64,000 nucleotides of DNA. Origin: a virus. The stretch lies in the IMG/VR virus record IMGVR_UViG_3300044960_000476, positions 5,725 through 69,724 of that record. One strand, given 5' to 3'. The notes under the pieces are model-generated. The model saw only the letters and a program-made list of their open reading frames with translations. It had not been told where the DNA came from and did no database searches. A program made the translations under genes and the position numbers. Position 1 is the first letter of the stretch. Every line of letters begins with the position of its first letter. Shown in pieces: positions 6,151 through 45,911 of this stretch.

Positions 6151-6549
6151 GTAGTACACCTCTGATGTGGTACGACAAAACGCGGGCCGCAAAAGGGTCA
6201 GAGAATTTGATAGCCCCCCGGAGAGGCCCAACCCGCCCACCCAAAAGTAGTACACCAAAAGCAAAAACCGGACATGACTGAGGTAGTACGCCAGCGCTCG
6301 GCTGTGGTTGCCCCGCTCGTCCCACCACTCGCGGTCCGTACCACCCCCATCGCGCCCACCCTCAAAGGTGGTACACACGCACAGCGCGGTAGAGGTAGTG
6401 GTGGTTTTCTCTCACAAGGCTGAGGTAGTACACCCGGCGGGCCTTGACTGGCCCGCCCGCCCACCCTAAGGTAGTACACCGTCCATCAGCCGGTCCATGC
6501 GGGTGGCCGGTCCTGACTGGCCCGCCCACCCGCCCTTAGTTGGTACGCC
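6151..6549 (+). repeat. Cluster of GTRGTACRCC boxes with CCCGCCCACC boxes
   Basis: Copies at 6151, 6167, 6247, 6283, 6368, 6425, 6471 and about 6540, plus one inverted at 6338. Confidence 0.8.
6444..6472 (+). promoter_or_regulatory. Host sigma-A promoter upstream of the phage RNAP gene
   Basis: TTGACT-17 nt-TAAGGT. Confidence 0.55.
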
Positions 6550-6595
6550 CGCCGCCCACGAGAAAAACAAAAAACAAAAAACAAAAAAACAAAAA

Positions 6596-6621
6596 CGCCT
6601 ACCGGCGACTGACCAGCGGAG
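6596..6621 (+). promoter_or_regulatory. Hairpin motif copy (putative phage-RNAP promoter)
   Basis: CGCC-TACC-GGCG ACTGA CCAGCGG, preceded by A-tracts at 6563-6595. Confidence 0.55.
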
Positions 6622-6626
6622 CAAAA

Positions 6627-6788
6627 GAAAGGAGTGACAACTCCTTTCGCGGCAGCGCCGCCGCTACCGGCCTAGCACGGGCGGCCTGTCGGCGGTCAAG
6701 GGTTCGCTTCGCCCTTCGGCCCTTGACCGCCTGGCCGCCCGTGCTGGCCTCCGCTTAAGCGGCGCTGCCGCTATGCGAAAGGAGTTGT
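6627..6788 (+). promoter_or_regulatory. Structured 5' leader of the RNAP gene (about 150-nt rod pairing with the SD)
   Basis: Nested arms ACAACTCCTTTCGC/GCGAAAGGAGTTGT, GGCAGCGCCGC/GCGGCGCTGCC, AGCACGGGCGGCC/GGCCGCCCGTGCT, GGCGGTCAAGGG/CCCTTGACCGCC. Confidence 0.75.
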
Positions 6789-6796
6789 GGTAGAAG

Positions 6797-8926
6797 ATGG
6801 TAGAGAAACTAAGAAAAATAGTAACAGACAAAGAAGCTACCCTGGTAGAAAAGAAAAACGTTTACCAGGGTAAAATGGTCAATGGAGAGTGGCTACCAAC
6901 TTCTCTCCACGACCGTTATGGCAATATCGTCCGCGTCGTGAAGGTGGAGCGCGATGCGGACAATGAGCTCATTACCCCTGTCGCCAAGGTAGATACTGAA
7001 TTCGTCTTTGTAGGCGGTAACCGTCATCGGGCCGTCTACGTAAAAGAAGACAGCCTTGCCCGGTGGTTGGATGCCGCCGCCGGTGACTCCAACTGGGCTG
7101 CGGCTTCAATGCTGCGGCCCGGTAAGTTGACGAAAGAGAATAAAGAGTTTGGCTGGACGGGGTATGAGGAGTCCAGCCTCGACACCGGTCTTCTCGCCAT
7201 TATGTCGCGGGAAGACTGGACAGTATTCGTTCAGGCGTTCGGTCTACCTGTGGAGGCAAAGCTTGCACAGGTGACTGTCTTCGACCTGGATAACATGGTG
7301 TCCGCAAAGGGCACCATCAGGGTGGCGTTCAGCGGAGAGCACCCAACCGTCTTCCCAAGTTCGTGGAAGAGGTTTGGCGAACTGCGTACCGAGTTTTCCG
7401 CTGTCCTAACTGTTGACGCGGTATACCGCCCCCAAGCGTCTATTAATGCCCAGGAGCTGCAGTACTGGTGCTACAGCAGGGGGCGCAAGTTGGCGGATTG
7501 GGTCTGGGAGGAATTGGCCCAGGCCCAGGAAGCCGTCCTACAAGAAAAGGGGTCTGTATGGACCCCGTATGGATACTTGAGTGCCCTCGGTATGTCGGGG
7601 GCTTTAAAGTCCGTCACCTACGACCTGGTGGACGGGCAACGCGGCAGCTTAACCAATATGTTGCGACGGGTGAAGTTTAGCGCCCGTCGCGGTTTGCGGG
7701 CCAAAACGACCGCGACCGCCATCATTAAGGAAGGAGAAGTACTCCTTCCCGAAGAGGCGAAGCGGCACGTGCGGGTGGGGCAAACGGTTGTAGTAGGTAG
7801 AAACCCCGCGTTGCCTAGCCAGGACTGGCAGGTATACAAAGTCGCGGGGTTCATACCTGCTAACGTCGTTGCATTTAACCCGAACGACCGGGGCTGGACC
7901 GCCGAACTCGGTGGCGACCACGATGGCGATGACTGTGTAGTTTACTACCAGTCACCCGTCGTCGGCGGCGAACCAGTCGGGCAACACGGGCTTGACCTGC
8001 AAAGCATCAAGCCGCAAGCCCGCAAGTTGGACAGCAACACCGTTGAGGCTAGGCTTCAGCGGTGGAAGAACGAAACGGCCGCAAACATCGGGCAGTTCGA
8101 GATTAATGCCCGGCGTTTGTCAACCAAAGGGCACCTTACCACCGAGCGTGCCAAGTTGTTCACTACAGCCATTCAGACGGTAATTGCGTTGAAGAAGCGG
8201 GTGGCCAAGCTGGAAGAACAGGCTTGGTACCCGGCAGTCGACGAGCTGATGGACGCGGCCAGCCGGTTGAGGGGCAAGAACGACGCGGACCGTATTAAGC
8301 GGTTCGCAGCGGGCGAGGTCGAGCAACGGTTCGACAACCCCACGACCGCTGCGTTGGCCGAACAGCTGCGCGGGTCGTTGGCACTGGTGACCACCCGGCA
8401 CCGGTACAACGACAGCGAAGAAATGCGGGCGCTGTTCGGTGCCAATGCGGAAGCGCCCAGCATTGTCAAAAACATGCTGGAAGAATACTATAGCCTCCAG
8501 ACGGCCAAAGCCGAAGCCAAACTGATGGGGGCCGACGTCCACCACCTGAACCAGCGCTTGAAAGTGCTGGTGCATCTGGAAGGCCCCGAGGTGATGATGA
8601 CCCTCGATGAAGAGGCGTGGAAGCAGGCCAGCAAATGGCTGATAGCAAACGCGCCCACCGAGGTGTGGGTGTACTGGAGCCACCCCGAGGTCATCCGCGA
8701 GTTTCTGACCTTCGTGGGCGCGACTAAAATTCGCATCGTTGGGCCGGTGGAAGAAATAAAACTTGAGGTGGGCGAAGTCGTCGAAGTGGACCAAAGCGGA
8801 CTCCGCGAGCTGGTCATCGACGAACAGGAGTTCGTGGTGGCCGAAGAGACGGGCTACCTCGAAGCCGGGCGCTACCAGGTGGTGGCCGTGAGCAAGCGCG
8901 GCGCTACTCTCGAAAAAACAAAGTAG
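6797..8926 (+). CDS. Single-chain two-barrel RNA polymerase (cellular RdRP/YonO/P23-45 gp64-like)
   Basis: Double-psi-barrel motifs in order: AKGT, VVVGRNPALP and LGGDHDGDDCVV (DxDGD metal-binding loop); first large gene of the early region. Confidence 0.88.
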   Translation: MVEKLRKIVTDKEATLVEKKNVYQGKMVNGEWLPTSLHDRYGNIVRVVKVERDADNELITPVAKVDTEFVFVGGNRHRAVYVKEDSLARWLDAAAGDSNWAAASMLRPGKLTKENKEFGWTGYEESSLDTGLLAIMSREDWTVFVQAFGLPVEAKLAQVTVFDLDNMVSAKGTIRVAFSGEHPTVFPSSWKRFGELRTEFSAVLTVDAVYRPQASINAQELQYWCYSRGRKLADWVWEELAQAQEAVLQEKGSVWTPYGYLSALGMSGALKSVTYDLVDGQRGSLTNMLRRVKFSARRGLRAKTTATAIIKEGEVLLPEEAKRHVRVGQTVVVGRNPALPSQDWQVYKVAGFIPANVVAFNPNDRGWTAELGGDHDGDDCVVYYQSPVVGGEPVGQHGLDLQSIKPQARKLDSNTVEARLQRWKNETAANIGQFEINARRLSTKGHLTTERAKLFTTAIQTVIALKKRVAKLEEQAWYPAVDELMDAASRLRGKNDADRIKRFAAGEVEQRFDNPTTAALAEQLRGSLALVTTRHRYNDSEEMRALFGANAEAPSIVKNMLEEYYSLQTAKAEAKLMGADVHHLNQRLKVLVHLEGPEVMMTLDEEAWKQASKWLIANAPTEVWVYWSHPEVIREFLTFVGATKIRIVGPVEEIKLEVGEVVEVDQSGLRELVIDEQEFVVAEETGYLEAGRYQVVAVSKRGATLEKTK

Positions 8927-9316
8927 CGCCTCCGGCGCCCTTCCGGCGGGGGTTGGACCTAAAAAGGGTCCAACCCCCTAAACCATGCAGGCCGCCTGCC
9001 GGCGGCTTGCCAGCGGGGGCCAAAGCCCCCAAAGACAAAAGAAAAAGGGCGCCTGCCGGCGCCCTTCCTGCGGGGCCTGGCGGCCCAAGGAGGAAAAAAT
9101 GAAAAAAGAAATGAAAGAAAAAGTCCTCATGGTAGCGACGGCCGTGGCGTGGGGCCTGTTGGTCCCGGGCCTGGTCCTGGGGTTCCTGGTCGGCCTGGCC
9201 ATTTTCCGGGCCGTCTTGGGCTAAAACACAAAGGGGCGCCTCCGGCGCCTCTCCGGCGGGGGGTGTGAAGCCCCCAAGGCAAGAAGAAAGCCGCCTGCCG
9301 GCGCCGCCCAGCGGGG
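8926..9316 (+). repeat. Five copies of the hairpin motif CGCC-T(G)CC-GGCG-N4-5-CCNGCGGGG, each followed by a G-run stem-loop
   Basis: Copies start at 8926, 8991, 9049, 9236 and 9290; all intergenic and in the same orientation. Confidence 0.9.
9099..9224 (+). CDS. Small membrane protein (41 aa)
   Basis: AAGGAGG RBS; long hydrophobic segment VLMVATAVAWGLLVPGLVLGFLVGLAIF. Confidence 0.7.
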   Translation: MKKEMKEKVLMVATAVAWGLLVPGLVLGFLVGLAIFRAVLG

Positions 9317-9342
9317 CAGGAAAGCCCCGAAAGGAGGTAAAC

Positions 9343-9624
9343 ATGAAACTCATGGACGTAGTTTTGTTGGTGTGCCGTGCCCTCAGCCTGAACGTAGACA
9401 TCATTGCGACCCCAAACGGAGCAATGCTCACTGACGAAAAGGGCAGCCCCGTCGGGGTGATGCGGTTGGTCAATGGCCGCCGCCTGGAAATGGTTTACAG
9501 GAGCGGCAAAGGCGTGGTAAAGCAAGCCATCAGGCTTCCTAAGTTTGTCACCCGACCAATGCATGCGGGCGACAAGCTTCGGGCAGTCGCAGCTGTTGTC
9601 GTCGAGGAGGCGGCTATGGCTTAG
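9343..9624 (+). CDS. Early protein, paralog family E copy 1
   Basis: AAGGAGGT RBS before ATG 9343; MKLMDVVLLVCRAL...DEKGSPVGVMRL. Confidence 0.8.
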   Translation: MKLMDVVLLVCRALSLNVDIIATPNGAMLTDEKGSPVGVMRLVNGRRLEMVYRSGKGVVKQAIRLPKFVTRPMHAGDKLRAVAAVVVEEAAMA

Positions 9625-9683
9625 AGGGGCGCTGTGCCCCCTCGCATGAGGGGGTACGCCTCAGCTAAAGAAAGGGGGTAAAA

Positions 9684-9938
9684 ATGAAACCACGGTTGAT
9701 AGACATAGTGGCATTAGTTGCCCAAGCCATCCGGGGCGGTAAACACCGGGTGGCACTTGGGCCGCAAAAAACCGGTGGCGCTGTATTTGACGACGCGGGA
9801 GAGCCCGTTGGCCTGTTCAAGGTTGAGGGAGAAACACTCCACATCTCCTTGGACGTACACGGCCAAGTCGAGTACTACAAACTCGGCTTGGAAAGATACC
9901 TAAAACAACTTTCTCTGGCAAAGGGGGTAAGAGCATGA
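9684..9938 (+). CDS. Early protein, paralog family E copy 2
   Basis: AGGGGG RBS; RLIDIVALVAQAI...GGAVFDDAGEPVGLFKV. Confidence 0.8.
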   Translation: MKPRLIDIVALVAQAIRGGKHRVALGPQKTGGAVFDDAGEPVGLFKVEGETLHISLDVHGQVEYYKLGLERYLKQLSLAKGVRA

Positions 9939-10063
9939 AAAACGAAGAGGTGTGGGGTGTAATAACCTACTACCCGCCTTGCGCGGCAAAAAAGCAACGC
10001 CGCAATTGGCCTAGGTGGTTCAGATACACCATCCGCAGGCTGTTCAGGTTGAACCGCAAATAA
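9935..10063 (+). CDS. Small basic peptide (42 aa)
   Basis: ATGA overlap with the previous gene, AGGGGG RBS; MKNEEVWGVITYYPPCAAKKQRRNWPRWFRYTIRRLFRLNRK. Confidence 0.55.
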   Translation: MKNEEVWGVITYYPPCAAKKQRRNWPRWFRYTIRRLFRLNRK

Positions 10064-10074
10064 ACAGATAATGT

Positions 10075-10100
10075 GCGCCTCCGGCGCCGTCCGGCGGGCG
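10075..10100 (+). promoter_or_regulatory. Hairpin motif copy
   Basis: GCGCC-TCC-GGCGC CGT CCGGCGGG. Confidence 0.65.
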
Positions 10101-10128
10101 GTGCTGGAGGCCCAGAAAGGAGAAAACT

Positions 10129-10500
10129 ATGCTGGTAAACACCATCAAAGCAGCGGCCCAAGCTTTGGGCGTTAAGTCGGAACCGGAAGTAATTGTAAGC
10201 ACCCACCGTGGTGACACTCACTACGGTGGTGCGTATATGGCCACCGGCGGCATCCTGGAGAATGGGCGGCAAATTGGCCTCTTTAAGGCGGAAGAGAAGC
10301 GCGGTAAAACCGCCGTCGAGTTGCTGCTAAACACTCCATCAGGAGTAAAGAAAGCCTGCTTGAGGATATCAGCCCAGTTGGGCGAACTGAAATCCACCAG
10401 GGAAGGGTTGGCCTACACGGAAGGAATGGCCGCCAAGAACTGGTGGCCGACTGATGCGAGTGGACGGCGCTTCGAAAGCCGTCCGTTGCCCGAAGAATAA
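10129..10500 (+). CDS. Early protein, paralog family E copy 3 (divergent)
   Basis: AAAGGAG RBS; MLVNTIKAAAQAL...GGILENGRQIGLFKA. Confidence 0.75.
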   Translation: MLVNTIKAAAQALGVKSEPEVIVSTHRGDTHYGGAYMATGGILENGRQIGLFKAEEKRGKTAVELLLNTPSGVKKACLRISAQLGELKSTREGLAYTEGMAAKNWWPTDASGRRFESRPLPEE

Positions 10501-10526
10501 GCGCCTCCGGCGCCTGACCAGCGGGG
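10501..10526 (+). promoter_or_regulatory. Hairpin motif copy
   Basis: GCGCC-TCC-GGCGC CTGA CCAGCGGGG immediately after a stop codon. Confidence 0.65.
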
Positions 10527-10573
10527 TGTTCACGGAATGGGCCAACGTGGACACCCCCAAAAGCCTTTGGCCC
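10523..10573 (+). ncRNA. H-type pseudoknot in the 5' leader of the gene at 10589
   Basis: Stem 1 GGGGTGTTCACG/CGTGGACACCCC (one G.U); loop GGGCCAA (10539-10545) complementary to TTGGCCC (10567-10573) next to the SD. Confidence 0.55.
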
Positions 10574-10588
10574 GAAAGGAGAAAAAGT

Positions 10589-10804
10589 ATGGCCTATCTT
10601 TGGTTTCAAACCAGCACCTACCGCGGCCACATCCTTAACGAGGTGTGCGCAGACATCGAACCGGGCTTGCAAATGCTAGAGGAAGCCCTCGACAGCGGTA
10701 ATTTTGTCGAGGGATATGTCCGCGTGGGTAAAAGGAAGTACCCGTTCACGGACACGAATGCCAGCGACGTCATTGCTACTTTACTAGAGAGCAAAGTCAT
10801 TTAG
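10589..10804 (+). CDS. Hypothetical early protein (71 aa)
   Basis: AAAGGAG RBS before ATG 10589. Confidence 0.75.
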   Translation: MAYLWFQTSTYRGHILNEVCADIEPGLQMLEEALDSGNFVEGYVRVGKRKYPFTDTNASDVIATLLESKVI

Positions 10805-10823
10805 GGGTGGTTTATCCACCCTT

Positions 10824-10888
10824 GGGCCGCAAGCCTCCACCTCCACGTGGTGCGGCCTGGGAGCCCCGCAAGGGGAACTAACGGAGGC
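10824..10888 (+). ncRNA. HDV-like self-cleaving ribozyme
   Basis: P1 GGGCCGC/GCGGCCT (G1.U), P2 GCCTCC/GGAGGC, P3 ACC/GGT, L3 TCCACGT, P1.1 CC/GG, P4 CCCC-GCAA-GGGG, J4/2 CTAAC. Confidence 0.9.
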
Positions 10889-10906
10889 AAATGAAAGGAG
10901 TAAAGT

Positions 10907-11287
10907 ATGCTGAATGTAAAGCACATGTACCAGGGAGTTATTATCCGCACCCCTTACAGCAAGAAGGGGCAGGCTAAGACGGGCGACCACTTCACCACTT
11001 ACAGGGCTTTGGCTGATGAAGCGAGCAACCGTTGGCTTGACCTGTACGTCTTTGGCGACGAGGCGGTTTTGGCTGTGCTGCCTCAGAAGCTGCTGGTTCG
11101 CGGAAACGTTTCCGTGTTGAACCTGCCCCAAACCCAAGAACTGCCCGGAAAGACCATTCTTGGGGCAAACGCCCTCTCCCTGGAAGTTTGGGACAGGGGG
11201 AAAGGAAAATGGACCAAAATGGCCGCGTTCATCGCGGGCTTGGCGGCTAAAGCGGAGGCAGAGGAGGCAATTGAACTGGAGTTTTGA
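10907..11287 (+). CDS. Hypothetical early protein downstream of the ribozyme
   Basis: AAAGGAG RBS; 126 aa; acidic C-tail ending ELEF (SSB/OB-fold-like, tentative). Confidence 0.8.
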   Translation: MLNVKHMYQGVIIRTPYSKKGQAKTGDHFTTYRALADEASNRWLDLYVFGDEAVLAVLPQKLLVRGNVSVLNLPQTQELPGKTILGANALSLEVWDRGKGKWTKMAAFIAGLAAKAEAEEAIELEF

Positions 11288-11378
11288 GGGCCATAAGGCC
11301 CTCTCACTGAGGGGGTACACCCCCGCTAAATGCGGGGGAGTACTCCCTTGGTCAAAGGAGGTGGTACACCAGCCGGAA

Positions 11379-11389
11379 TGTGATATACT
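11379..11389 (+). promoter_or_regulatory. Extended -10 promoter facing the non-coding region
   Basis: TGTGATATACT. Confidence 0.5.
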
Positions 11390-11757
11390 AGTAAGCATGT
11401 AGTACGCTCTTGCGGAGCCAGGCAGGGGGCGGGGCGGCAGCCCCGCCCCCCTACTGTCTGCAAATAATTCTCTCCTTACTCTCCCATAGTTATTTTCAAA
11501 CACCCCCGGGGTGGGGGTACAAACCAGCCGAGTAGTGTCCGTTTGGACAAATGGCTAGCCTCTACTCGGCAAGGTGTGTCGACAGACTGGGGAGTAAGCT
11601 ATTTGGCTTACTCTCCAGTTGTTTCTATTTGCTATTTTCTATTTCCTGTTTGCTAACCCCGCGCGGGCAAGCTTGTGGCCTTTAAAGCGGTCGCGGTGGG
11701 CATGTTATCCAGCTTCGTCACAGACGTAAAAAATGAAGCTGACATTCAACAAACCCG

Positions 11758-12386
11758 CATTCTTCCAATATAAAAGTGGGGGGTGGCCTTATTTTGGCTT
11801 ATACGGCCTCAGAGAGGCCAAATTTTTGGATGCCAATTTTGGGGTCGATAAGAAAGGCATTTTTTGCACTTAATATGCTTCCCCGGTATATTTACCCTTA
11901 AACCACCTTACCCCCGTCTTAAAATTGATTATACGGCCTTACAGAGGCATTCTAGAGGTGGGGTTTAAACCTGACGAAAAGTTTGGGGTTAGGAAATAGG
12001 AGCTAGGAAATAGGAAGTAGCAAAATGCTTTACCTTGCTATTTCCTACTCCGCTATTTCCTACTCCGCTATTTCCTAACTCCTAGTTTCTATTTTCTAAC
12101 CCATAACCCACTCTTTTTCTCCGTCCAGGACGTTATTCACCCAACTCACCCTTAATTTATGCCCATTCTTACGATATAAAAATGGGGGGTGGCCTTAAAA
12201 TTGATTATACGGCCTTATAGACCCCTTTTAAGCGGATGGCAAAATTGGGGTCGATAAGAAAGGCAAAAATTGAAGCTAATGTGTCACCCCGGTATATTAC
12301 CCCTTAGAAGGGCTACCCCCCGTCTTAAAATGGCTTATACGGGCTTATAGGGCCATTCTACGGAGGGGGTTGCAAGCTGGCGAAAA
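11758..12386. repeat. Imperfect 223-bp direct duplication (11758-11980 and 12164-12386)
   Basis: Shared blocks GGGGGTGGCCTTA, GGGGTCGATAAGAAAGGCA, CCCCGGTATATT and CCCCCGTCTTAAAAT; TTATACGG at 11799, 11929, 12205 and 12335. Confidence 0.9.
11990..12100. repeat. TAGGAAATAG / CTATTTCCTA short repeats in inverted arrangement
   Basis: Two TAGGAAATAG copies, then three GCTATTTCCTA copies at 15-bp period. Confidence 0.8.
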
Positions 12387-12540
12387 TATAGAGTTTGGAC
12401 TGGATGAAAGAGGGGTTGCGTGCAGGGCAATTCCGTTATTCCTTCCTCCCTTCATACCTTAACCCAAAAACCCCTTATTTCTTAACTCAAAACTTTTCTC
12501 AAAACCCACCAAATTCCGTTACTTTTGAACGAAAAGAGTG

Positions 12541-12960
12541 CCTATAATAAGAGCAAAAAGCCCTATAAAGGGCTTTTTGCTCTCTACTAACTATTAGTTA
12601 GCTAACTACATGCTATATACTAGCTAACTAACAAGTTGTTAGTAAGCTAACTACATGCTTTATATATAACTATAATACGCTGTCGTGTGCTAGTATAATA
12701 TATAAGCTAACTAAAGGAGCTAAACCCTTAAAGGGTTTAGCTCCTAGTATATACTAGTATATTATATATATTTATATATTGTTTTTACTCATTACTATAT
12801 ACTAGCTAACTACATACTTTATACTAACCATCCCTATACTTTATACTAACTAGGAGCATTACCCTATAAAGGGTAATGCTCCTATATATACTTATTACTA
12901 GCTAACTACATGCTTTATATTAACCATCTACATGCTTTATACTAACCATTATAGGGGCAC
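12541..12960. other. Putative replication origin: very AT-rich, AGCTAACTA repeats, three palindromes
   Basis: No ORF. AGCTAACTA(CATGCT) six times; palindromes at 12550-12583, 12715-12745 and 12851-12884. Confidence 0.55.
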
Positions 12961-13011
12961 TACCAACTTTCGAAAATAAACCAACGCTGTCGGGCGCAAG
13001 GAGGGTAGCAA

Positions 13012-31125: not shown

Positions 31126-31838
31126 AGCCCGTACTTGATAAAGGCTTTGTCCGGTTGGTGGGCTATAACGTTGACTTAATTGACGCAAAAGAAGAAAATT
31201 TTGGCTTTGTGCTATTCAATGGGCACACTCTTGATGCACAAATTGTGCGTGCAGCTAGAGTTAGTTATGGGCATGGCACTAAGACTGTGCGCGATGACGC
31301 CAAGCTTATCAAGTATTTGTTAAAGCATGAGCACTGGTCACCATTTGAAATGGTGGAATTTAAATTTCATGTTAAAGCCCCTATTTTTGTAGCAAGGCAA
31401 TGGTTTAGGCATCGCACGGCAAACGTAAACGAAATATCAGGACGCTATTCTGTGTTGCCTGAAGAAGTTTATATTCCTGAAGCTTTTCGCAAACAAGACG
31501 AAAAAAACAAACAAGGCTCAAACGGTACGCTAGATGAATACACAAATGCTCACGCCATTGATGCATACACAGAAGCCGTAGCTTATGCTTTCGAAGCTTA
31601 TAAAGCTTTGTTAAAAGCAGGCGTTGCAAGAGAAATGGCGCGTATGGTGTTGCCTTTGTCTACATACACCGAGTTTTACTGGAAGCAAGACTTGCGCAAC
31701 CTCTTGCATTTCCTGCGCCTGCGCATGGACCAGCACGCGCAGTGGGAAATTCAAGAATACGCTCGCGCTATTCTGTCCATAATTGAACCATTCTTGCCTA
31801 TTACTATTAACGCTTGGAAGGAGCTTCAAGATGAGTGA
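31119..31838 (+). CDS. thyX: Flavin-dependent thymidylate synthase
   Basis: AARVSY, HWSPFE, RQWFRHR...NEISGRY, AREMARMVLP, HAQWEI. Confidence 0.97.
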   Translation: MVKPVLDKGFVRLVGYNVDLIDAKEENFGFVLFNGHTLDAQIVRAARVSYGHGTKTVRDDAKLIKYLLKHEHWSPFEMVEFKFHVKAPIFVARQWFRHRTANVNEISGRYSVLPEEVYIPEAFRKQDEKNKQGSNGTLDEYTNAHAIDAYTEAVAYAFEAYKALLKAGVAREMARMVLPLSTYTEFYWKQDLRNLLHFLRLRMDQHAQWEIQEYARAILSIIEPFLPITINAWKELQDE

Positions 31839-34800
31839 CTTGCGGGAGTACATTTGGAAGAAGCAGTATGCTCAAGGCAACGAGTCTATTGAGCAAGGTT
31901 TTAGGCGTGTAGCTGAAAACATTGCATTGGCTGAACCTATTGATAAGCGAGAAGAAGCTATTGAAGCTTTCTTCGAGATGATGCAGTCCAATAAATTTAT
32001 TCCTGGTGGCCGTATTCTAGCCGGTGCGGGAAGTGCGCATGGAAATAACTTAAATTGCTTGCATGGGGACACTCTAGTACAAACCCGTGAAGGGGTTTTT
32101 CCTATTCGTGCCTTGGTTGGGCAAAAGCATCAAGTATTGACTCGCAACGACACCTGGCGTTGGGCAGAATTCCGCGAGTTTGGTCAACAAGAATTGTACC
32201 GCGTCGTTTTTAGCAATGGCGAGGAAGTGCTTGCTACAGCCAACCACCGTTGGTACACCCGAAAAGGTGTATACACTACGCAACAATTAGTCAATAAGCG
32301 CATTCCGGTAATGGCAACTTATATTCGTCCGCCTAGAAACGACGACTATTACCAGGGAGTGCGCCACGGTTTGGTTTATGGTGATGGAAGCAAAAATTCT
32401 ACTTCTTACACATATGGGTTGAGGCTATTTGGCATTAAACAGTCTTTGGCTCAAATGTTTGATAGCTATGCCAAAATAACTGAAAAACAATATGGCGGGC
32501 GCGAGCAAACCGTAGTGACTGTAATTGGCGGCCATTACAAGGAGTTGCCGCCCGCTAATGCTAGCGACAGCTATTGGTATGGTTTCTTCTGTGGGCTTCT
32601 TGCAGTCGACGGCTGTGTTGATGAGCTTGGCTCGGTCATTATTCATTCTGCTGACAAAGAAGCCCTGCAAACCATAGCCAAGCGACTCAAACACTTTGGT
32701 ATTGCTTATGCTAGCCTTAAATGTACTCGCGAGCTAAGCCCGTATGACGGCAGCCATAAACCGGTGTATGGTTTACGTCTTTTCCGTCGCACCCTGATGC
32801 CGGAAGACTTCTTGCGTGAGGACCATCGCCGACGTTTTGTAGATAAGTCGCAAAGCGGCAAGCACTCTAGTCTAAAAGTTGTCGCTGTTGAATCTACCGG
32901 GCTGACTGAAACTGTTTATTGCGCTGTCGAGCCTGAAACGCACAGCTTTGTCCTTGCGGGCGGTATTCTGACCGGAAATTGCTTTGTAGTGGACGGCGCT
33001 CCTGAGCCACCCGGAAGCAATGATTGGGCTTTGTTGCTTGCTAAAAAGCTAGCACTTATTACCAAAGTTGGTGGTGGTACGGGGCTTAACCTTGACCCTA
33101 TTCCGCCCCGTCGCAATTTCCTGCAGCAAACCGGTTCTCTTTACATTTACATTAACCCTAACCACCCCAACTCGGACGACGTTTACACTGGACGCATTAC
33201 TCAACGCTTTACTGGTCTAAAAATTGAGCAGGGCTATAAAGTTGCCGGTATTTTGACTAAAGTCAAAGACGCACCACAACGTGCTGAATGGCTGCTTGTT
33301 GAGGACTCTATTGAGTCCATTTGGGACAATGCAGCCCAAATGGTTAAGCTCATGCTTGATGGAAAAGACGTAGTGGTGTGTTTGGACGCTCTAAGGCCAG
33401 AAGGCGCGTGGGTTAATGGCTCTGGTGGTGAAAGCAGCGGCCCTGCTTCTTTCGCTGTTGAAATTTTCGACAACTATGCACGTTGGGCTATGCGCGGTGG
33501 TGCCGAGTATGCAGGCCCTGTAGCCACGCTTCGTTATCTGTATGCCCCTACGCTAAGGGTTATTAAGCAAGGCGGCACTCGCCGTGGTGCGGGTATGGCA
33601 ACCCTTAGCATTCATCATCCAGACATTAACGACTTTATTACCTGCAAAGACTTGGACCGCGAAAACGCGGAAGGTGACATTTCCACTTTCAACATTAGCG
33701 TACTGGTTGACAACAAAACCATTGAAAACTATCAGAATAACGAAAGCACTGCTTGCGCCTTGCTACAGGCTATTGCCGAACACGCCCACGCCACCGGTGA
33801 GCCTGGAGTGCTCTTTGTTGACACCATTAACGCCAATAACCCCTTAGCTGCTATTGACGGCCCTATTGTTGCTACCAACCCTTGCTTTGTCGGTGAAACC
33901 CGCATTCCGACTGAATTTGGTTTGGTGCCCATTGAGCAACTAGTTGACAAAGAAAGCTTTAAGCTGGTTACTGACAACCGTGCTCCTTTGTTTGGCCTTG
34001 GGCAACCCAATGAAAGCCTTGGGGTAACTGTAAGAGGCAATGTTCGGGCGTTTTACACCGGAGAGCGCGAAGTAATTCGCGTTGAAACAAAAGAAGGCTT
34101 TACTCTGACGCTAACGCCTGACCATAAACTGCTTACTCCTTCAGGCTATCGTAAAGCGGGTGACTTGCAACCCGGCGACAAGCTGTTTGTGCAAAGCGGA
34201 GAGGGCTTGTGGAGTCAAGATAAGGCTCTTCCAGCTGAAACGCTAAACTTTATTGCTGAGCGTTTGCCTAAAGCTGGTGGTAAACACTCTAGCGGTAGGC
34301 GTGACATTCGTGAGCAGTATGCCAACTTGCCTACCGAGTGGAGTGAAGAATTGGGTTTGGCGCTTGGTTGGCTTATTGGTGATGGCTTTGTGCGCAAAGA
34401 CGGCGTAGGCTTGTATTTCAGCAATAAAGAATTTGCGGATGCGCAAACTGTTGTTAGCAGTTTGCGTAAATGGTTTGGGCAAGGTTATTTAACGGCAACT
34501 AACTTTAATACTCAGTATTTGCGTTTTGGTAAACTACCAGCAGAATTTTTCATGACGCTTGGTGTAAAGCCTGTCAAAGCCACCGATAAGCAAGTGCCAG
34601 AAAGCATTTTCACTGCACCTCGGGAAGCCGTGCGTGGTTTCTTGCGTGGGTTGTTTAGCACTGACGGTACTGTCGAAGGTGGCGTGCACAAAGGGACATG
34701 TAGCGTCAGACTAGCCTCTTCGAGTAAAAAATTACTTGAAGGCGTGCAGTTGTTGTTGCTCAATTTTGGTATTTTTGGACCTATTTATCATCGTAGGGCG

Positions 34801-36588
34801 GCTCAGCGTAAAGCTTTGCCGGATGGTAAAGGTGGACTAAAAGAGTACTCTGTTGCTGACCAGTACGAACTTATTATCGGTGGCAAAAGCCGCGACCGCT
34901 TTGCTGAAGTTATCGGTTTTGCCTTGCCGCACAAGCAAGCCAAACTCGAAGAATTTGTTTGTTTTAATAAGAACAAACAAAGAAAATTCCGTCGCCAAAG
35001 CTTTGAAGCAACAATAACTAAAATTGAGCCTGTAGGTGTTGCTAAAGTTTATGATTTGACAGAACCAATTGGGCACAGTTTGGTTGCAAATGGTGTGGTG
35101 GCACATAATTGCGCCGAAATAACATTGTATCCCGGAGAACCATGCGACCTCGGCGCTATTAACTTCTCCGAATTTGTTAAAGACGGTGCTATTGACTACG
35201 AAGGTTTAGCTCAAACTGCTAAATTAGCCGTGCGTTTTCTTGACGATGTGCTCACCGTAGAAAAAGCACCGCTTAAAGAAATTACGGCTGCTATTGAAGA
35301 CAAGCGTCGCATTGGCCTTGGTTTGATGGGGCTAGCAGACGCGCTCATTAAGCTCGGCATTGCGTATGATAGCGAAGAAGGAAGAAAAGTTGCCGCAAGC
35401 ATGTTTGATGCTGTGGTCAAAGCAGGACTGCAAGCCTCAAAAGACTTGGCCGTGGAGCGTGGTGTGCCTGACGGAGTGCGCCGAGCCGGGCTAGCGAGGC
35501 GCAATATTGCCCTATTTACTGTAGCGCCTACCGGCACTACTTCAATGCTGGCGGGAGTGTCGAGTGGTGTTGAACCTGTCTTTGCCGCTGCCTATGACCG
35601 CCGCATTGACACTGAAGTGCACAAAGTGCTGCACCCTTTGCTTGTCAAAATGCTAAATGAGCAAAATGCTTTAGAGTGGGCGCGCCAAGCTAATGTACCA
35701 ACGGTTAAAGACGGGCAATGGAACCTTGAGCTTATCATTGAAGGTATTAACAAGGCTCACGGTAGCGTTCAGCCTTTTGTTGAACGTGGTTGGTTGCCGC
35801 CTTGGTTTGCTTGCTTTAAGATAGCTCACGACATTACTCCAAAAGACCATGTGTTAATGCAGGCGGCCATTCAGCGGGTTATGGACCAGGAAATGGCCGG
35901 GAATTCCATTTCCAAAACTATTAACCTGCCCAACCACGCCAGCGTAGAAGACGTGCTATCAGCTTACGTACTAGCCCACAAAGAAGGTTGCAAAGGATGT
36001 ACGGTTTATCGTGACGGTAGCAGGGCTTTCCAAGTGCTTTCGGTAGAAGACGGCGACTTTGAGTCTTGGGCAAAACAGTTCGAAACTGTAAGCGCTAAAC
36101 CAAACGATAATAATGCTACTTTTGTTTCAGCCCTAAGGACGCGTCCGCGTGTTATTCAGTCGCTAACACACAAATACGAAGTTGGTGGCCGTAAAATTTA
36201 CGTCACCGTCGGCTGGAATGAAAAGGGCGAAATTGTCGAGGCTTTTATCAACCTGTCCAAGCCAACGCCTAACGAAGCCGTAATAGCTGACTTGGTTGGT
36301 AGGTTGCTGTCGGTGGCGTTTAAGCATGGCGCTGAAGTTAAAGACGTTGTAAAGCACCTACAAGGGCATTATGACCAATCTGGTGGCTTCTCAGAGGGTA
36401 TGGGCTTTGTTAACTCTATGTGGGATGTGGTTGCCCATGCGCTGCTGAATACGGGGCCAAATAGCGAAACTAAAAATATTTTAATTAATGCACCGCGCAC
36501 CGACAGCTGTCCTGAGTGTGGTGGCCCTCTTGTTAGGAAAGGCGGATGCAACAAATGTGAGAAGTGTGGCTATGAAACGTGTGGCTAA
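31831..36588 (+). CDS. nrdJ: Class II (B12-dependent) ribonucleotide reductase with two inteins
   Basis: FIPGGRIL, RRGAGM, TFNISV, TGEPG, TNP|C, EPCDLG, RRIGLG, TVAPTGT, SISKTIN, TVYRDGSR; TSCPD-like and Zn-ribbon C-terminus; no nrdB in the window. Confidence 0.93.
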   Translation: MSDLREYIWKKQYAQGNESIEQGFRRVAENIALAEPIDKREEAIEAFFEMMQSNKFIPGGRILAGAGSAHGNNLNCLHGDTLVQTREGVFPIRALVGQKHQVLTRNDTWRWAEFREFGQQELYRVVFSNGEEVLATANHRWYTRKGVYTTQQLVNKRIPVMATYIRPPRNDDYYQGVRHGLVYGDGSKNSTSYTYGLRLFGIKQSLAQMFDSYAKITEKQYGGREQTVVTVIGGHYKELPPANASDSYWYGFFCGLLAVDGCVDELGSVIIHSADKEALQTIAKRLKHFGIAYASLKCTRELSPYDGSHKPVYGLRLFRRTLMPEDFLREDHRRRFVDKSQSGKHSSLKVVAVESTGLTETVYCAVEPETHSFVLAGGILTGNCFVVDGAPEPPGSNDWALLLAKKLALITKVGGGTGLNLDPIPPRRNFLQQTGSLYIYINPNHPNSDDVYTGRITQRFTGLKIEQGYKVAGILTKVKDAPQRAEWLLVEDSIESIWDNAAQMVKLMLDGKDVVVCLDALRPEGAWVNGSGGESSGPASFAVEIFDNYARWAMRGGAEYAGPVATLRYLYAPTLRVIKQGGTRRGAGMATLSIHHPDINDFITCKDLDRENAEGDISTFNISVLVDNKTIENYQNNESTACALLQAIAEHAHATGEPGVLFVDTINANNPLAAIDGPIVATNPCFVGETRIPTEFGLVPIEQLVDKESFKLVTDNRAPLFGLGQPNESLGVTVRGNVRAFYTGEREVIRVETKEGFTLTLTPDHKLLTPSGYRKAGDLQPGDKLFVQSGEGLWSQDKALPAETLNFIAERLPKAGGKHSSGRRDIREQYANLPTEWSEELGLALGWLIGDGFVRKDGVGLYFSNKEFADAQTVVSSLRKWFGQGYLTATNFNTQYLRFGKLPAEFFMTLGVKPVKATDKQVPESIFTAPREAVRGFLRGLFSTDGTVEGGVHKGTCSVRLASSSKKLLEGVQLLLLNFGIFGPIYHRRAAQRKALPDGKGGLKEYSVADQYELIIGGKSRDRFAEVIGFALPHKQAKLEEFVCFNKNKQRKFRRQSFEATITKIEPVGVAKVYDLTEPIGHSLVANGVVAHNCAEITLYPGEPCDLGAINFSEFVKDGAIDYEGLAQTAKLAVRFLDDVLTVEKAPLKEITAAIEDKRRIGLGLMGLADALIKLGIAYDSEEGRKVAASMFDAVVKAGLQASKDLAVERGVPDGVRRAGLARRNIALFTVAPTGTTSMLAGVSSGVEPVFAAAYDRRIDTEVHKVLHPLLVKMLNEQNALEWARQANVPTVKDGQWNLELIIEGINKAHGSVQPFVERGWLPPWFACFKIAHDITPKDHVLMQAAIQRVMDQEMAGNSISKTINLPNHASVEDVLSAYVLAHKEGCKGCTVYRDGSRAFQVLSVEDGDFESWAKQFETVSAKPNDNNATFVSALRTRPRVIQSLTHKYEVGGRKIYVTVGWNEKGEIVEAFINLSKPTPNEAVIADLVGRLLSVAFKHGAEVKDVVKHLQGHYDQSGGFSEGMGFVNSMWDVVAHALLNTGPNSETKNILINAPRTDSCPECGGPLVRKGGCNKCEKCGYETCG
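32056..32979 (+). mobile_element. Intein 1 in NrdJ (308 aa, LAGLIDADG endonuclease)
   Basis: N|CLHGDT...TANHRW...GLVYGDG...GLLAVDG...ILTGN|C. Confidence 0.92.
33883..35109 (+). mobile_element. Intein 2 in NrdJ (409 aa, LAGLIDADG endonuclease)
   Basis: NP|CFVGET...TPDHKL...GWLIGDG...GLFSTDG...VYDLT...VAHN|C. Confidence 0.95.
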
Positions 36589-36636
36589 GTTGCCTGTGGG
36601 GGCGGGCGTCAAGCCCGCCCCCGTTAAGGGGGTGTA

Positions 36637-36852
36637 ATGAATAAAAAGAAGGTATGGGTAACGCTAAACGAAAACAAAATTGCTTTTTCGGAAAAGCAGT
36701 CAATAGGAGAAGTTGAAATGTTCTTTAACATGTTTGAAGACGACTCTATTGATAGCCTAGAACCTTGGTTAAAAATAGGGCTTGTGTATAGCCCCAAATA
36801 TGAGGTATTCTATCCAGTATATGTTACCAAACAAAGTTTCATACATGCTTAA
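36637..36852 (+). CDS. Hypothetical protein
   Basis: AAGGGGG RBS after a GC hairpin at 36598-36622. Confidence 0.6.
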   Translation: MNKKKVWVTLNENKIAFSEKQSIGEVEMFFNMFEDDSIDSLEPWLKIGLVYSPKYEVFYPVYVTKQSFIHA

Positions 36853-43412: not shown

Positions 43413-45911
43413 TCAGCCCCCTAATAGCCAATCTTCGCTGTCGTCGCGCACACTCCAGGTACGTCCAAATGGGTCATACATACCATCAGCGCTAACCCAA
43501 TAAATTATGTCTTCGTACGGCTGCCCGTAAGGGTCAACATTGTAAATAATGGTTGTATGGAGGGTTTCGGTTAGTGTACCCATGTACCCAAGCTGCACAG
43601 TAGAACGAACTTGCCCGCCCGCTTGAAAGCTTAAACTCGGCTCCTCTAACACCAAATAATAATCCCAAACTTCAATTCTTGCTCCAACTCCCCCCTCTGG
43701 TAAGCGAGGAATAGCTACTACTTGATTAGCTAAAAGCCCGCTATAGCCTACAACCTCCATTTGTGCGGTTATCCACTCTAAAGCTTTACGCAATGCTATA
43801 GCGTCAATAATGCGTTCAGCATAATTGGAATATACGGTATAGCCTTCGATAGTAAAACTATCAGCATTACCCGGAATGGAGTACTGTGGTACAAATTCGT
43901 TTTTAATATTTTCCTTATTTCCAAAAAGACGTTTACCGTATGCTAACAGCTCTCCGACAATATTTTTATCTTGCATGCGCGCCCAAAGCGGAACGTGTGC
44001 GCCAGTAGCCAACCATTGCGGAGCATCCGCCCGCCCACCAGATGCTGAATAAACTAATTCGCCTTTAGCTTTTGCTACCACTTCATAATAAGCAAAAGGC
44101 GGTGTGTAAACTATTAAACGAATTTTTGTCACACCATAATAACCGTTTACTGTTCCATACACTAACTCATATGTAGTATATGGGTTAGCAAACAAGTTTA
44201 AGTCAATATTACGGGCTTCAAAAAGACGGACTTCAAGGTTTTTATAAACTGCTGCATTGCCGCTACTGTCAACAAGGGGTACTTCTACTACAGGAAAATT
44301 ACTTCCAGCCCTTGCTTCCGTTGTGGGATTGCCGTTACTGTCCAAAAACCAAACATTTACCTGTGTTGAGCCTGTTGGTGAGGCAGTAATAGATGAGGAT
44401 AAGCCCTCAAGCCTTAGTTCACGCGGCGGAACCTCACCTGTATTAAAGACAGGTACACCAAAACGCAAGTCTGGTAAAAAGTTTCCTTCAGCGTCGCTAT
44501 GTAAACGAATAGCTGGCAAATTTTCTAAACTGCCAACATTTGGATATGGAGCTAAATGCACTAAATAAGGCATTCCACCATAGCTTTTCAAAGTAAACCC
44601 ATTTGCCTGAGCAACTGCATCTATCTTGCTTCGTACAGATTGGTTGCGTATGGCATACAGTTGCAACCAGTCATAATCCGTATCTAAGTTAACTAGTTTG
44701 GCTTCTCCAGCGTTAGTGTCGGGGTTTTGTTTCCATACAGTCATTGGTCGCCAAATAACGTTTTTGTCTTCAATAAACGGGCGAACTCCCGGAGTCAATG
44801 TGCCAATAACGTGTGTAATGTAACCTAAGTCGTCAGCAAACGGTAATTGTTTAGCTTGTCCGTCTGGAGTAACAACTACTTCAATATCTTCGTTTCGGTT
44901 GAGAATATCAACAGCACTTTCCAAGTCTAATGTTATTAAGTTTCCGTTTGCGTAAGGCTCAATAGAAAGCCTACTTAAGGTTCCAACCATTACTACCGCA
45001 CCATCTAATTCAATGCGAACTTGTGAACCTAGCGATAATACAGAACTATAGCGCCCACTTGGTACAACCAAAGTTAAGCTTTTTCCGCTAAATGAGCTTG
45101 TATACTCAGAAAAGTCTATGTTGTTAATTACAACGCGTAGTTTAGGGACATATAAGTTTGCTTTACCCAACCTTGTTTGTTCCGTCGGACTGGCTGTTGC
45201 GTATTCTTCTTCCAGTAGTATAAAAACAGTATCTACGTCATATAGCGTATTACTAAAAGTAATTTTCAAGCAACCATGAGTGTAGTTATTAACGGCAATA
45301 TCATTACTAGTCGGTATTGAAGTGTACCAAGTAATATCTCCTACTTCACTTTTGGCTAAACCTAACTCACACGTCCAGCCAAAACCAAATCCGGTGGACC
45401 ACTTAATAACTTCAGTAAAAATTCCCGCCCAAATTAATTTAATTTCAATGTCCTCAATGCGTATCAAAAAGTCCGATAATTTAAATAGTTTAGACTGCCA
45501 GTACCCATAGCTTGCTCTTGGCGGTGCGGGCCAGTAAGTGTAATTACCTTGTAGTTGGTTACCGTCTGGTCCAACTAAATAAAAACCAATGTATTGAGCG
45601 TTAAAAAGTGGGCGCACATTTTCTTTATTTATTTCCATATATGTTGCTGTAATGTCAACCATTACAGGCGGTAATTCGTGCTCTTCTTGCTCGCCAGGCG
45701 GACCAACTAGACTGGTAAACCGCATGGCTACTCGGTAGCCCGCGCCAACTGGTAAGTTTGTATAAAACCGTAAATGTGTCGGTGTATCTTCTACGCCCGG
45801 AGTTGCCGATTCCCAAATGTATGCGCGTCTTAAGCGTTTACCAATAACAATATTTTGGCTTCCTGCCGTTAAGTCGCTAAAAGTGTCCAATACTAAGCTA
45901 CGTTTTGCCAT
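43413..45911 (-). CDS. Tail tip/hub protein (putative)
   Basis: Large beta-rich ORF downstream of TMP; start ATG 45911 (TAATG coupling, GGGGG RBS). Confidence 0.6.
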   Translation of the reverse strand: MAKRSLVLDTFSDLTAGSQNIVIGKRLRRAYIWESATPGVEDTPTHLRFYTNLPVGAGYRVAMRFTSLVGPPGEQEEHELPPVMVDITATYMEINKENVRPLFNAQYIGFYLVGPDGNQLQGNYTYWPAPPRASYGYWQSKLFKLSDFLIRIEDIEIKLIWAGIFTEVIKWSTGFGFGWTCELGLAKSEVGDITWYTSIPTSNDIAVNNYTHGCLKITFSNTLYDVDTVFILLEEEYATASPTEQTRLGKANLYVPKLRVVINNIDFSEYTSSFSGKSLTLVVPSGRYSSVLSLGSQVRIELDGAVVMVGTLSRLSIEPYANGNLITLDLESAVDILNRNEDIEVVVTPDGQAKQLPFADDLGYITHVIGTLTPGVRPFIEDKNVIWRPMTVWKQNPDTNAGEAKLVNLDTDYDWLQLYAIRNQSVRSKIDAVAQANGFTLKSYGGMPYLVHLAPYPNVGSLENLPAIRLHSDAEGNFLPDLRFGVPVFNTGEVPPRELRLEGLSSSITASPTGSTQVNVWFLDSNGNPTTEARAGSNFPVVEVPLVDSSGNAAVYKNLEVRLFEARNIDLNLFANPYTTYELVYGTVNGYYGVTKIRLIVYTPPFAYYEVVAKAKGELVYSASGGRADAPQWLATGAHVPLWARMQDKNIVGELLAYGKRLFGNKENIKNEFVPQYSIPGNADSFTIEGYTVYSNYAERIIDAIALRKALEWITAQMEVVGYSGLLANQVVAIPRLPEGGVGARIEVWDYYLVLEEPSLSFQAGGQVRSTVQLGYMGTLTETLHTTIIYNVDPYGQPYEDIIYWVSADGMYDPFGRTWSVRDDSEDWLLGG

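Follow-up and report, generated by a model that had tools for sequence, protein, structure and literature searches.

A candidate P4-bearing ribozyme of the hepatitis delta virus type between two small early genes of a hot-spring phage related to Thermus phage phiFa

The DNA analyzed here, referred to as the window, is a stretch of 64,000 nucleotides that makes up most of the IMG/VR virus record IMGVR_UViG_3300044960_000476 (69,724 bases, estimated to be 63% complete). At positions 10824-10888 of its plus strand, in the gap between two small early genes, lies a 65-base element that is very probably a real member, in its fold, of the hepatitis delta virus (HDV)-like ribozyme family, and that, judging from its sequence, is probably catalytically active. 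The explanation that we favor, with some reservation, is that this HDV-like ribozyme, which bears a P4 helix, splits an early two-gene message; message processing as its role is in our judgment slightly favored, and we infer catalysis, the co-transcription of both genes, and a benefit to the phage.

Results

Architecture of the ribozyme

Ribozymes of the HDV type cut at their own 5' edge, need nothing upstream of the cut, and remain as a whole fold on the downstream RNA. In the present element, the predicted scissile bond lies between U10823, the base at position -1, and G10824, which takes the G1 position in the alignments to the Rfam models RF00094 and RF02682 and to R1, a covariance model that is described below. 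P1 begins at this G, with its 5' strand GGGCCGC at 10824-10830 and its 3' strand GCGGCCU at 10852-10858, and all seven pairs form (the wobble G10824-U10858 at the base, then G10825-C10857, G10826-C10856, C10827-G10855, C10828-G10854, G10829-C10853, and C10830-G10852). The two As of J1/2 (10831-10832) lead into the 5' strand of P2, GCCUCC (10833-10838), which makes six of six pairs with GGAGGC (10883-10888) in a duplex of -10.4 kcal/mol at 37 °C. P3 pairs ACC with GGU (10839-10841 with 10849-10851, three of three pairs) and encloses the 7-nt loop L3, UCCACGU (10842-10848), which has a G near its 3' end and two Cs that pair with the GG after P1 (10859-10860, followed by G10861) to give P1.1 (C10843-G10860 and C10844-G10859). 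P4 at 10864-10875 consists of a 4-bp CCCC/GGGG stem (10864-10867 with 10872-10875) capped by a GNRA loop, GCAA, and it is followed by J4/2, AACUAAC (10876-10882), in which C10878, at the position of the catalytic cytosine, precedes UAA, a further C, and then P2. All 22 pairs are standard (seven in P1, six in P2, three in P3, two in P1.1, and four in P4), and the helices form a nested double pseudoknot in canonical HDV order; an earlier note, made from the letters of this DNA, had listed the same elements, and each of them is present where that note placed it. The P3-L3-P3 core occurs exactly once in the window. All structural hallmarks of the HDV-like class for which sequence allows a test are found in the element, and it is the Rfam thresholds at which it fails. 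By analogy with the HDV family, C10878 would be the catalytic residue, and in a phage ribozyme of this family the mutants C58U and C57U are reported to be inactive (PMC13635239).

Support from covariance models, descriptors, and shuffled sequences

At Rfam gathering thresholds, the window has zero matches. A permissive Rfam scan of 10700-11000 (301 nt) places three HDV-family models on the element, at the same place and on its strand: RF00094 with 33.0 bits (E-value 0.0028 on 301 nt), RF02682 with 18.8 bits, and RF01787 with 18.3 bits, and L3 is aligned with high posterior probability to the L3 of each of the three. When the whole window is scanned with E-values up to 10, the RF00094 match has the top bit score among 15 matches and no other ribozyme family is found; over the whole 69.7-kb record, RF00094 has one match, the ribozyme at 10824-10888. 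The Rfam HDV models score P1 or P2, never both, and expect other lengths of P4, and the architecture was therefore tested directly.

The pattern ACCTCCNCGTGGTG-N7-GG, which describes the core, finds at least 119 stretches in the IMG/VR viral contigs. There are 122 core matches among the matches listed together with the window, 99 of which have a perfect and correctly placed 7-bp P1; among the matches listed, 89 of these 99 combine it with a P2 (5 bp or longer) whose start lies 0-2 nt behind C-N-A-A, and the 89 represent 62 distinct sequences. Among the listed matches outside the window that have full flanks, the core ACCUCCNCGUGGUG is accompanied by a P1 of seven out of seven pairs in 94 of 115, by C-N-A-A lying 0-2 nt before the 3' strand of P2 in 85 of 115, and by the whole architecture (P1, P2, and C-N-A-A) in 85 of 115, and shuffling of the flanks leaves a seven-pair P1 in 227 of 5750 cases (3.9%) and the whole architecture in 13 of 5750 (0.23%). 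By these counts, the core is close to diagnostic for the HDV-like architecture. A relaxed descriptor in which the core letters are free (any 3-bp P3, L3 of the form YCCNCGN, a P1 of seven out of seven pairs, GG, C-N-A-A, and a P2 of at least 5 bp) has one match in the window, which is the ribozyme, and none in 100 block-shuffled windows. The covariance model R1, built from 46 minimal ribozymes with the window left out, scores 10824-10861 at 31.4 bits (rough E-value 2e-6), with model positions 1-40 only being aligned.

In an alignment of 60 members, the core and the GGG after P1 are invariant, the first P1 pair is G-U in 35 sequences, G-C in 17, and A-U in eight, and five of the seven P1 pairs vary on both sides; the 100% pairing of P1 in this set is by construction, the members having been selected for P1. 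The minimum-free-energy z-scores (-0.36 for 65 nt and -1.15 for 136 nt) are uninformative because the folding program does not treat pseudoknots, and the minimum-free-energy fold of 10780-10915 contains P1, P3, and the hairpin that lies upstream of the ribozyme.

Position within a probable early transcription unit

The ribozyme sits in a 102-nt gap that holds, in this order, a stop codon, a hairpin, the ribozyme, a Shine-Dalgarno (SD) sequence, and an ATG. The upstream open reading frame (ORF), of 71 amino acids, runs from the ATG at 10589 to the TAG stop at 10802-10804 on the plus strand, and this stop codon lies inside a G/C-rich hairpin at 10803-10823 that abuts the predicted cut. The hairpin has six G/C-rich core pairs (10805-10810 with 10816-10821, loop UUUAU), extendable to eight over the full 10803-10823, with a predicted free energy of -12.4 kcal/mol at 37 °C and -5.0 kcal/mol at 70 °C. 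On the other side, the SD sequence AAAGGAG (10895-10901) begins 6 nt after P2, and the downstream gene, which encodes 126 amino acids (10907-11287, plus strand), has its ATG at 10907, 18 nt after the ribozyme. The earlier note's hairpin at 10805-10821 just 5' of the cut and its SD sequence a few nucleotides after P2 are both real, and its statement that no tRNA adjoins the ribozyme agrees with the ARAGORN result of zero tRNA genes in the window. Between 10500 and 10907 on the plus strand, there is no sigma-70-like promoter and no terminator-like site, and a strong intrinsic-terminator-like hairpin at 11585-11620 (plus strand, a 16-bp stem followed by a T-run) is likely the end of the transcription unit.

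The record contains the genes of a tailed phage, including the large terminase, a DnaB-like helicase, an intein-bearing ribonucleotide reductase, and a family A DNA polymerase. The sequence marks this uncultured hot-spring phage as related to Thermus phage phiFa: its terminase (TerL) is 62% identical to that of phiFa, and a 709-amino acid ORF at 6797-8926 (plus strand) matches, over 98% of its length and with 42.6% identity, the annotated phiFa RNA polymerase. This ORF also has a sub-threshold match to PF05183 (RdRP-type two-barrel) and contains the peptide GDHDGDDC, and it probably encodes the phage's own single-subunit RNA polymerase. In phiFa, the RNA polymerase and eight small genes are located in a 6.6-kb long terminal repeat, the genes of which are described as early (PMC7515739). 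The synteny with this region is the reason for placing the ribozyme in the early module, and in this respect the note's designation of an early gene is upheld. The ribozyme is sense to all genes of the polymerase-encoding module. The early module (6500-11650) has a G+C content of 57.5% compared with 45.1% for the rest of the window, and the first 14 kb of phiFa have 57.2%. A palindrome, GCGCC-N3-5-GGCGC, occurs in six copies (8926, 9049, 9236, 10075, 10501, and 15770, plus strand; 0.37 expected) in gaps of the early module, though the ribozyme gap has none.

Relatives of the ribozyme in viral and metagenome contigs

A pattern for the P4-bearing form (core, GG, 10-30 nt, CTAAC) finds 47 loci in metagenome contigs, with seven of seven P1 pairs in 30, six in nine, five in four, and four in four, and only five loci in viral contigs. 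Closest to the present ribozyme are four near-identical copies in gaps between genes of the 6.9-kb metagenome contig Ga0209407_1008833 (L146), two of which are also on a further contig, L169. The L146 copies are identical to the present ribozyme at 52-53 of 65 positions, and the differences in P1, P2, and P4 are all compensatory pair exchanges, with orthology to L146 being unproven; their P4, UGCC-GAAA-GGCA, is at the same place. Common to both are the AA of J1/2, L3, a 4-bp GNRA-capped P4, CUAAC before P2, and an intergenic location, whereas the L146 contig carries its four copies within 6.9 kb among unrelated, unannotated neighbor genes, and the present phage carries one. Pfam and PHROGs searches of these L146 neighbors gave only one sub-threshold match, to M78. 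The arrangement of C-N-A-A plus one C before P2 is common to L146 and to two viral-contig loci, L013 and L046.

In a sample of 98 non-redundant instances, the cut falls at the 3' end of a tRNA in 29 and does not in 69. The layout of hairpin, ribozyme, SD sequence, and ATG is present in five others of the 69 non-tRNA instances (L170, L171, L046, L124, and L043), among them two intergenic copies on a 42-kb contig (L170, IMGVR_UViG_3300009481_000027) and three on a 47-kb contig (L046/L013, IMGVR_UViG_3300036832_001178). An upstream hairpin accompanies 32 of the 69, where a control window gives 19 of 69 and shuffled sequences give 17 of 69. Several of the ribozymes of L146, L170, and L046/L013 follow a hairpin and precede an SD-ATG by 30-70 nt, a multi-copy version of the layout described here.

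Natural variation at the ribozyme locus

Contigs from four runs of one sample were compared with the window over 9800-11700, with any uncovered part being uninformative. The abundant genotype (runs X1 and X3, depth about 215-240) does not differ from the window. A second genotype, the only one seen in runs X5 and X7, is approximately 99% identical, with shared substitutions at 10661, 11199, and 11268 and a shared 9-nt insertion behind 10259; in all, six substitutions were noted in the co-occurring strain besides this insertion (10312, 10366, 10661, 11199, 11268, and 11522). In X5, where the second genotype is represented by a 6947-nt contig at depth 10.8, the 73 bases 10793-10865 are replaced by 15 letters, and in X7 its contigs end at 10792 and restart at 10875. 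Still present in it are a hairpin-like piece, the last third of the ribozyme on the 3' side, the SD sequence, and gene 10907; the 15 replacement letters look by eye like the hairpin's 5' portion with a single change. Such a 3' remnant points to a deletion from an ancestor that carried the ribozyme.

The same sample contains diverged relatives, on short contigs of depth 2-8, that match the window at 80% or more over the ribozyme only (10837-10884/88 with three differences; 10814-10862 with two differences and two gaps). Their flanks are unlike those of the window, and have an SD-ATG downstream and a similar gene end and hairpin arm upstream. Since likeness of at least 80% is confined to the ribozyme, it is the best-conserved island in these relatives. 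A pattern with a free 3' strand of P1, aimed at them, found zero stretches in the viral contigs, and the metagenome scan for the P4-bearing form did not contain them either.

Habitat and predicted heat stability

All eight of the listed sequencing runs that contain the stretch are labelled as hot-springs or microbial-mat metagenomes, and there is no RNA run among them. The G+C content of the ribozyme, 0.72, is the highest of 60 ribozymes compared (median 0.43), and its nested P1 and P3 have the most stable energy of the 60 at 37, 60, 70, and 80 °C. P1, P2, P4, and the upstream hairpin each have a negative predicted free energy at 70 °C, the high-temperature energies being nearest-neighbor extrapolations. 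The earlier suggestion of a thermostable ribozyme is consistent with the habitat, the base composition, and the helix energies, and stands as a candidacy. Literature searches found no HDV-like ribozyme reported from a thermophile phage, in a coverage that did not extend to the supplementary sequence lists of PMC10879173.

Discussion

One published group for comparison consists of the theta ribozymes, minimal HDV-like ribozymes of Caudoviricetes tailed phages (Kienbeck et al. 2024, PMC10879173). Of the 1281 occurrences given there, 742 are tRNA-associated and 526 are not; 493 of these 526 are non-coding, more than 96% are sense to the nearest gene, and most isolated ones are separated from any ORF by more than 200 nt. 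The non-tRNA class is said to "likely serve unknown biological functions" (PMC10879173). The premise of the earlier note, that minimal phage versions are described mainly next to tRNAs, is accordingly overstated, both by this count (526 of 1281) and by our own sample (69 of 98). The present ribozyme shares with the isolated theta ribozymes the P3-L3-P3 core, a 7-bp P1 with a G1-U wobble, the GGG, and C-U-A-A before P2, and like them it is located in a tailed phage, in a non-coding gap, and sense to its neighbors. It differs in having a 4-bp GNRA-capped P4, where theta is minimal, in lying 18 nt from a start codon, in its G+C content relative to the median of the compared ribozymes, and in coming from a hot-spring phage, whereas more than 80% of theta ribozymes are from gut phages (PMC10879173). 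Because the P4 at 10864-10875 is present and no tRNA 3' end lies within 5 nt on either side of the cut, it is outside the theta definition. An HDV ribozyme of Ackermannviridae is likewise a P4-bearing member of the HDV family from a tailed phage, for which activity at about 4 per min, a crystal structure, and inactivity of C58U are reported (PMC13635239); its P1.1 consists of U-A and U-U, in contrast to the two C-G pairs here, the two having been compared by description only.

Placement of a self-cleaving ribozyme just upstream of an early-gene start codon has a parallel in the hammerheads. Those flanking prophage genes have been proposed to process long phage transcripts into gene-length mRNAs, and HHphage, in the haloviruses HF1 and HF2, lies 13 nt before an early-gene start, and the 5' end of the transcript has been mapped close to its cleavage site (Perreault et al. 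2011, PMC3088659). HHphage shares the logic that we propose, with the difference that a hammerhead remains largely on the upstream product after the cut, whereas a ribozyme of the HDV type goes in its entirety to the downstream mRNA. An operon punctuated by ribozymes is not what is found here, as Rfam, the descriptor, and R1 detect only one ribozyme and none bracketing the genes. The early mRNA of phage T7 is cut at intergenic RNase III sites, which yields upstream messages that end in hairpins and a defined leader downstream, and RiboJ, a synthetic ribozyme insulator engineered from a hammerhead, likewise gives a defined downstream leader. T7 depends on a host enzyme and RiboJ on an engineered hammerhead, whereas in the present case a fold of the HDV type would cut itself.

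Our proposal is that genes 10589-10804 and 10907-11287 would be transcribed together and that the ribozyme would fold during transcription and cut between U10823 and G10824. The upstream message would then terminate with the hairpin at 10803-10823 and carry a 2',3'-cyclic phosphate, and the downstream message would start with a 5'-OH on the compact G/C-rich ribozyme fold, 6 nt before the SD sequence. The result would be a split, independent of host nucleases, of a two-gene (or longer) early transcript, and this split may uncouple the stability and translation of the two cistrons. Strand and position fit such processing, because the ribozyme is sense, the gap runs from stop through hairpin, ribozyme, and SD sequence to ATG with no intervening promoter or terminator, and a terminator-like hairpin follows at 11585-11620. 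Of the interpretation put forward in the earlier note, the HDV fold with P4, its location on the coding strand, and its position between the hairpin and the ribosome-binding site of gene 10907 hold, while the cutting of a message is a step that we infer.

It is rather unlikely, in our estimate, that an active ribozyme serves instead to form the upstream RNA's 3' end, as a substitute for a terminator, with the downstream leader as a by-product. HDV-type ribozymes do stay with the 3' product and free a clean upstream 3' end, just as theta ribozymes make tRNA 3' ends (the 29 of 98 instances above), the 8-bp hairpin here ends exactly at the predicted cut, and in L046 one copy is preceded by an intrinsic-terminator-like hairpin with a T-run. 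Yet with only 6 nt between the end of the ribozyme and a strong SD sequence, and 18 nt between it and the ATG, an effect on the downstream leader is inescapable, and the two roles are in any case compatible. Nor do we think it likely that the ribozyme is a dispensable passenger, recently acquired or decaying, in a fast-evolving early region. The near-identical strain that has lost the 5' two-thirds and is nonetheless the sole genotype in X5 and X7, the lack of a ribozyme in phiFa, the orphan status of the flanking genes, and the single copy would all suit a passenger, but none of the 22 pairs and none of the conserved core positions is disrupted, the diverged relatives in the same sample keep the core while their flanks drop below 80% likeness, and in X1 and X3 it is the genotype with the ribozyme that is abundant.

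More improbable is a conditional switch, in which temperature, Mg2+, or ribosome traffic on the upstream ORF would tune gene 10907 in place of a constitutive cut. The upstream stop codon within the hairpin that abuts the cut would suit it, as would the CCUCC motifs in the 5' strand of P2 and in L3, which by eye could pair with the SD sequence on misfolding, and regulated cleavage has been proposed for slow phage hammerheads (PMC3088659); the minimum-free-energy fold of 10780-10915, however, leaves the SD sequence unpaired with these motifs, and no ligand-binding or alternative conserved structure was found in the element. The least probable of these explanations, to which we attach very little weight, is that the resemblance arose by chance or is non-catalytic, the element being a stable structured spacer or a terminator-like element. 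The Rfam scores under the gathering cut-offs and the unremarkable z-scores could be read in this way, but L3, P1.1, and J4/2 match exactly, and neither the single descriptor match against none in 100 shuffled windows nor the 0.23% rate of the full architecture by chance per core fits such an origin.

Several results count against the favored explanation of a ribozyme that processes an early message. The search with HDV-family models that the earlier note had proposed finds three families at the same place and strand, but all of them score below their gathering cut-offs (33 compared with 50 for RF00094, 18.8 compared with 44 for RF02682, and 18.3 compared with 37 for RF01787), and over the whole window the E-value of the RF00094 match is 0.6. 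The core pattern was derived from the window, so the sharing of the core and part of the R1 score are circular, and only P1, P2, J4/2, and the context are independent. The window has only one copy of the ribozyme (Rfam at E-values up to 10, the descriptor, and R1), the enrichment of upstream hairpins in the wider sample is modest and may include unrecognized tRNA-like ends, and the architecture of the transcripts becomes uncertain if the phage polymerase uses the GCGCC-N-GGCGC hairpins as promoters. The second genotype lacks P1, the 5' strand of P2, P3, L3, and P1.1, and the ribozyme is therefore dispensable at least in this approximately 99%-identical deletion genotype; phiFa has no HDV-like ribozyme detectable with R1 (at most 6.7 bits, first 14 kb) or RF00094 (at most 14 bits, whole genome). 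Given a near-identical strain without most of the ribozyme and phiFa without any, the ribozyme looks accessory, not indispensable.

That phage HDV-like ribozymes occur away from tRNAs (PMC10879173) and that hammerheads precede phage early genes (PMC3088659) is already known. What distinguishes the present case is the P4 form, the thermophile-phage lineage together with the G/C-rich build, the tight placement before a start codon, and the presence/absence polymorphism. It adds a case to the unexplained class of non-tRNA phage HDV-like ribozymes, and it leaves the picture of what HDV-like ribozymes are unchanged. Should it prove active, the range of HDV-like ribozymes would reach into the thermophile phages, and a compact variant, very rich in G+C and perhaps functional at high temperature, would be of use both in ribozyme biophysics and, for thermophilic hosts, as a part for RNA processing. 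Its layout (stop codon, hairpin, ribozyme, ribosome-binding site) and the natural strain without the ribozyme make the idea of message processing open to a direct test.

A more elaborate version, which we offer tentatively and regard as doubtful, is that of a heat-adapted insulator, independent of host nucleases, in the early region that is injected first. It would cut at 65-75 °C, and the ribozyme-capped message, with its 5'-OH, would escape decay that depends on the 5' end, a dependence known for RNase E and RNase J; the gene behind it would possibly be single-stranded DNA-binding protein (SSB)-like, and the ribozyme would be in the course of being gained or lost among co-occurring strains. 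Were this true, the spring itself would offer a naturally occurring knock-out as the comparison. Type III CRISPR targeting in phiFa is reported to be directed at early transcripts (PMC7515739), and it is conceivable, though highly improbable, that severing nascent early transcripts blunts such targeting.

Flanking genes and other features of the window

The downstream 126-amino acid protein has one homologue among 5.8 billion proteins, at 98% identity, and no Pfam match even at E-values up to 10. A structure search of the Atlas gave a TM score of 0.59 to an SSB cluster, a weak lead toward an OB-fold or SSB-like protein; it stays a lead because Pfam is empty, the AlphaFold single-sequence model has a pLDDT of 50.7, and Foldseek against the PDB returned no match at an E-value of 0.001 or below. 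The upstream ORF (10589-10804) belongs to no Pfam or PHROG family and has no relative in the viral contigs. Viral-contig loci related to the two flanking proteins and the RNA polymerase were not found beyond one weak 26-residue match (L002), blastn of 9500-12500 against phages gave no match, and the first 14 kb of phiFa contain no detectable homologues of the small early ORFs.

The R1 matches ranked second and third in the window, at 36634-36675 (plus strand) and 43853-43914 (minus strand), score at most 16 bits, share only a GGGUAA-GCUAA-like tail without P3 or L3, and were rejected as chance; the former has a 12-base likeness to the theta 3' consensus GGGTAACGCTAA and is probably a small-ORF start that resembles it by chance. 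The long hairpins at 11978-12116 and 12540-12604 have weak and meaningless Rfam matches. They fall in a segment of approximately 1.7 kb (11287-13011) that has no ORF of 100 or more amino acids, and a run of G/C-rich hairpins follows gene 10907. The step in G+C content at 6500-11650 may reflect a mosaic origin or a segment similar to a long terminal repeat. Elsewhere in the window, the large subunit of ribonucleotide reductase (31783-36588, plus strand) is split by an intein that carries a LAGLIDADG domain, and a 2999-amino acid ORF (50699-59698, minus strand), which has no Pfam match at an E-value of 0.001 or below and adjoins tail-fiber-like genes, is presumably the tape measure. Three small early ORFs at 9265-9624, 9684-9938, and 10129-10500 (plus strand) resemble paralogues by eye, and have in common a hydrophobic N-terminal helix and the motif G-x-P/Q-[VI]-G-[VL]-[MF]-[KR].

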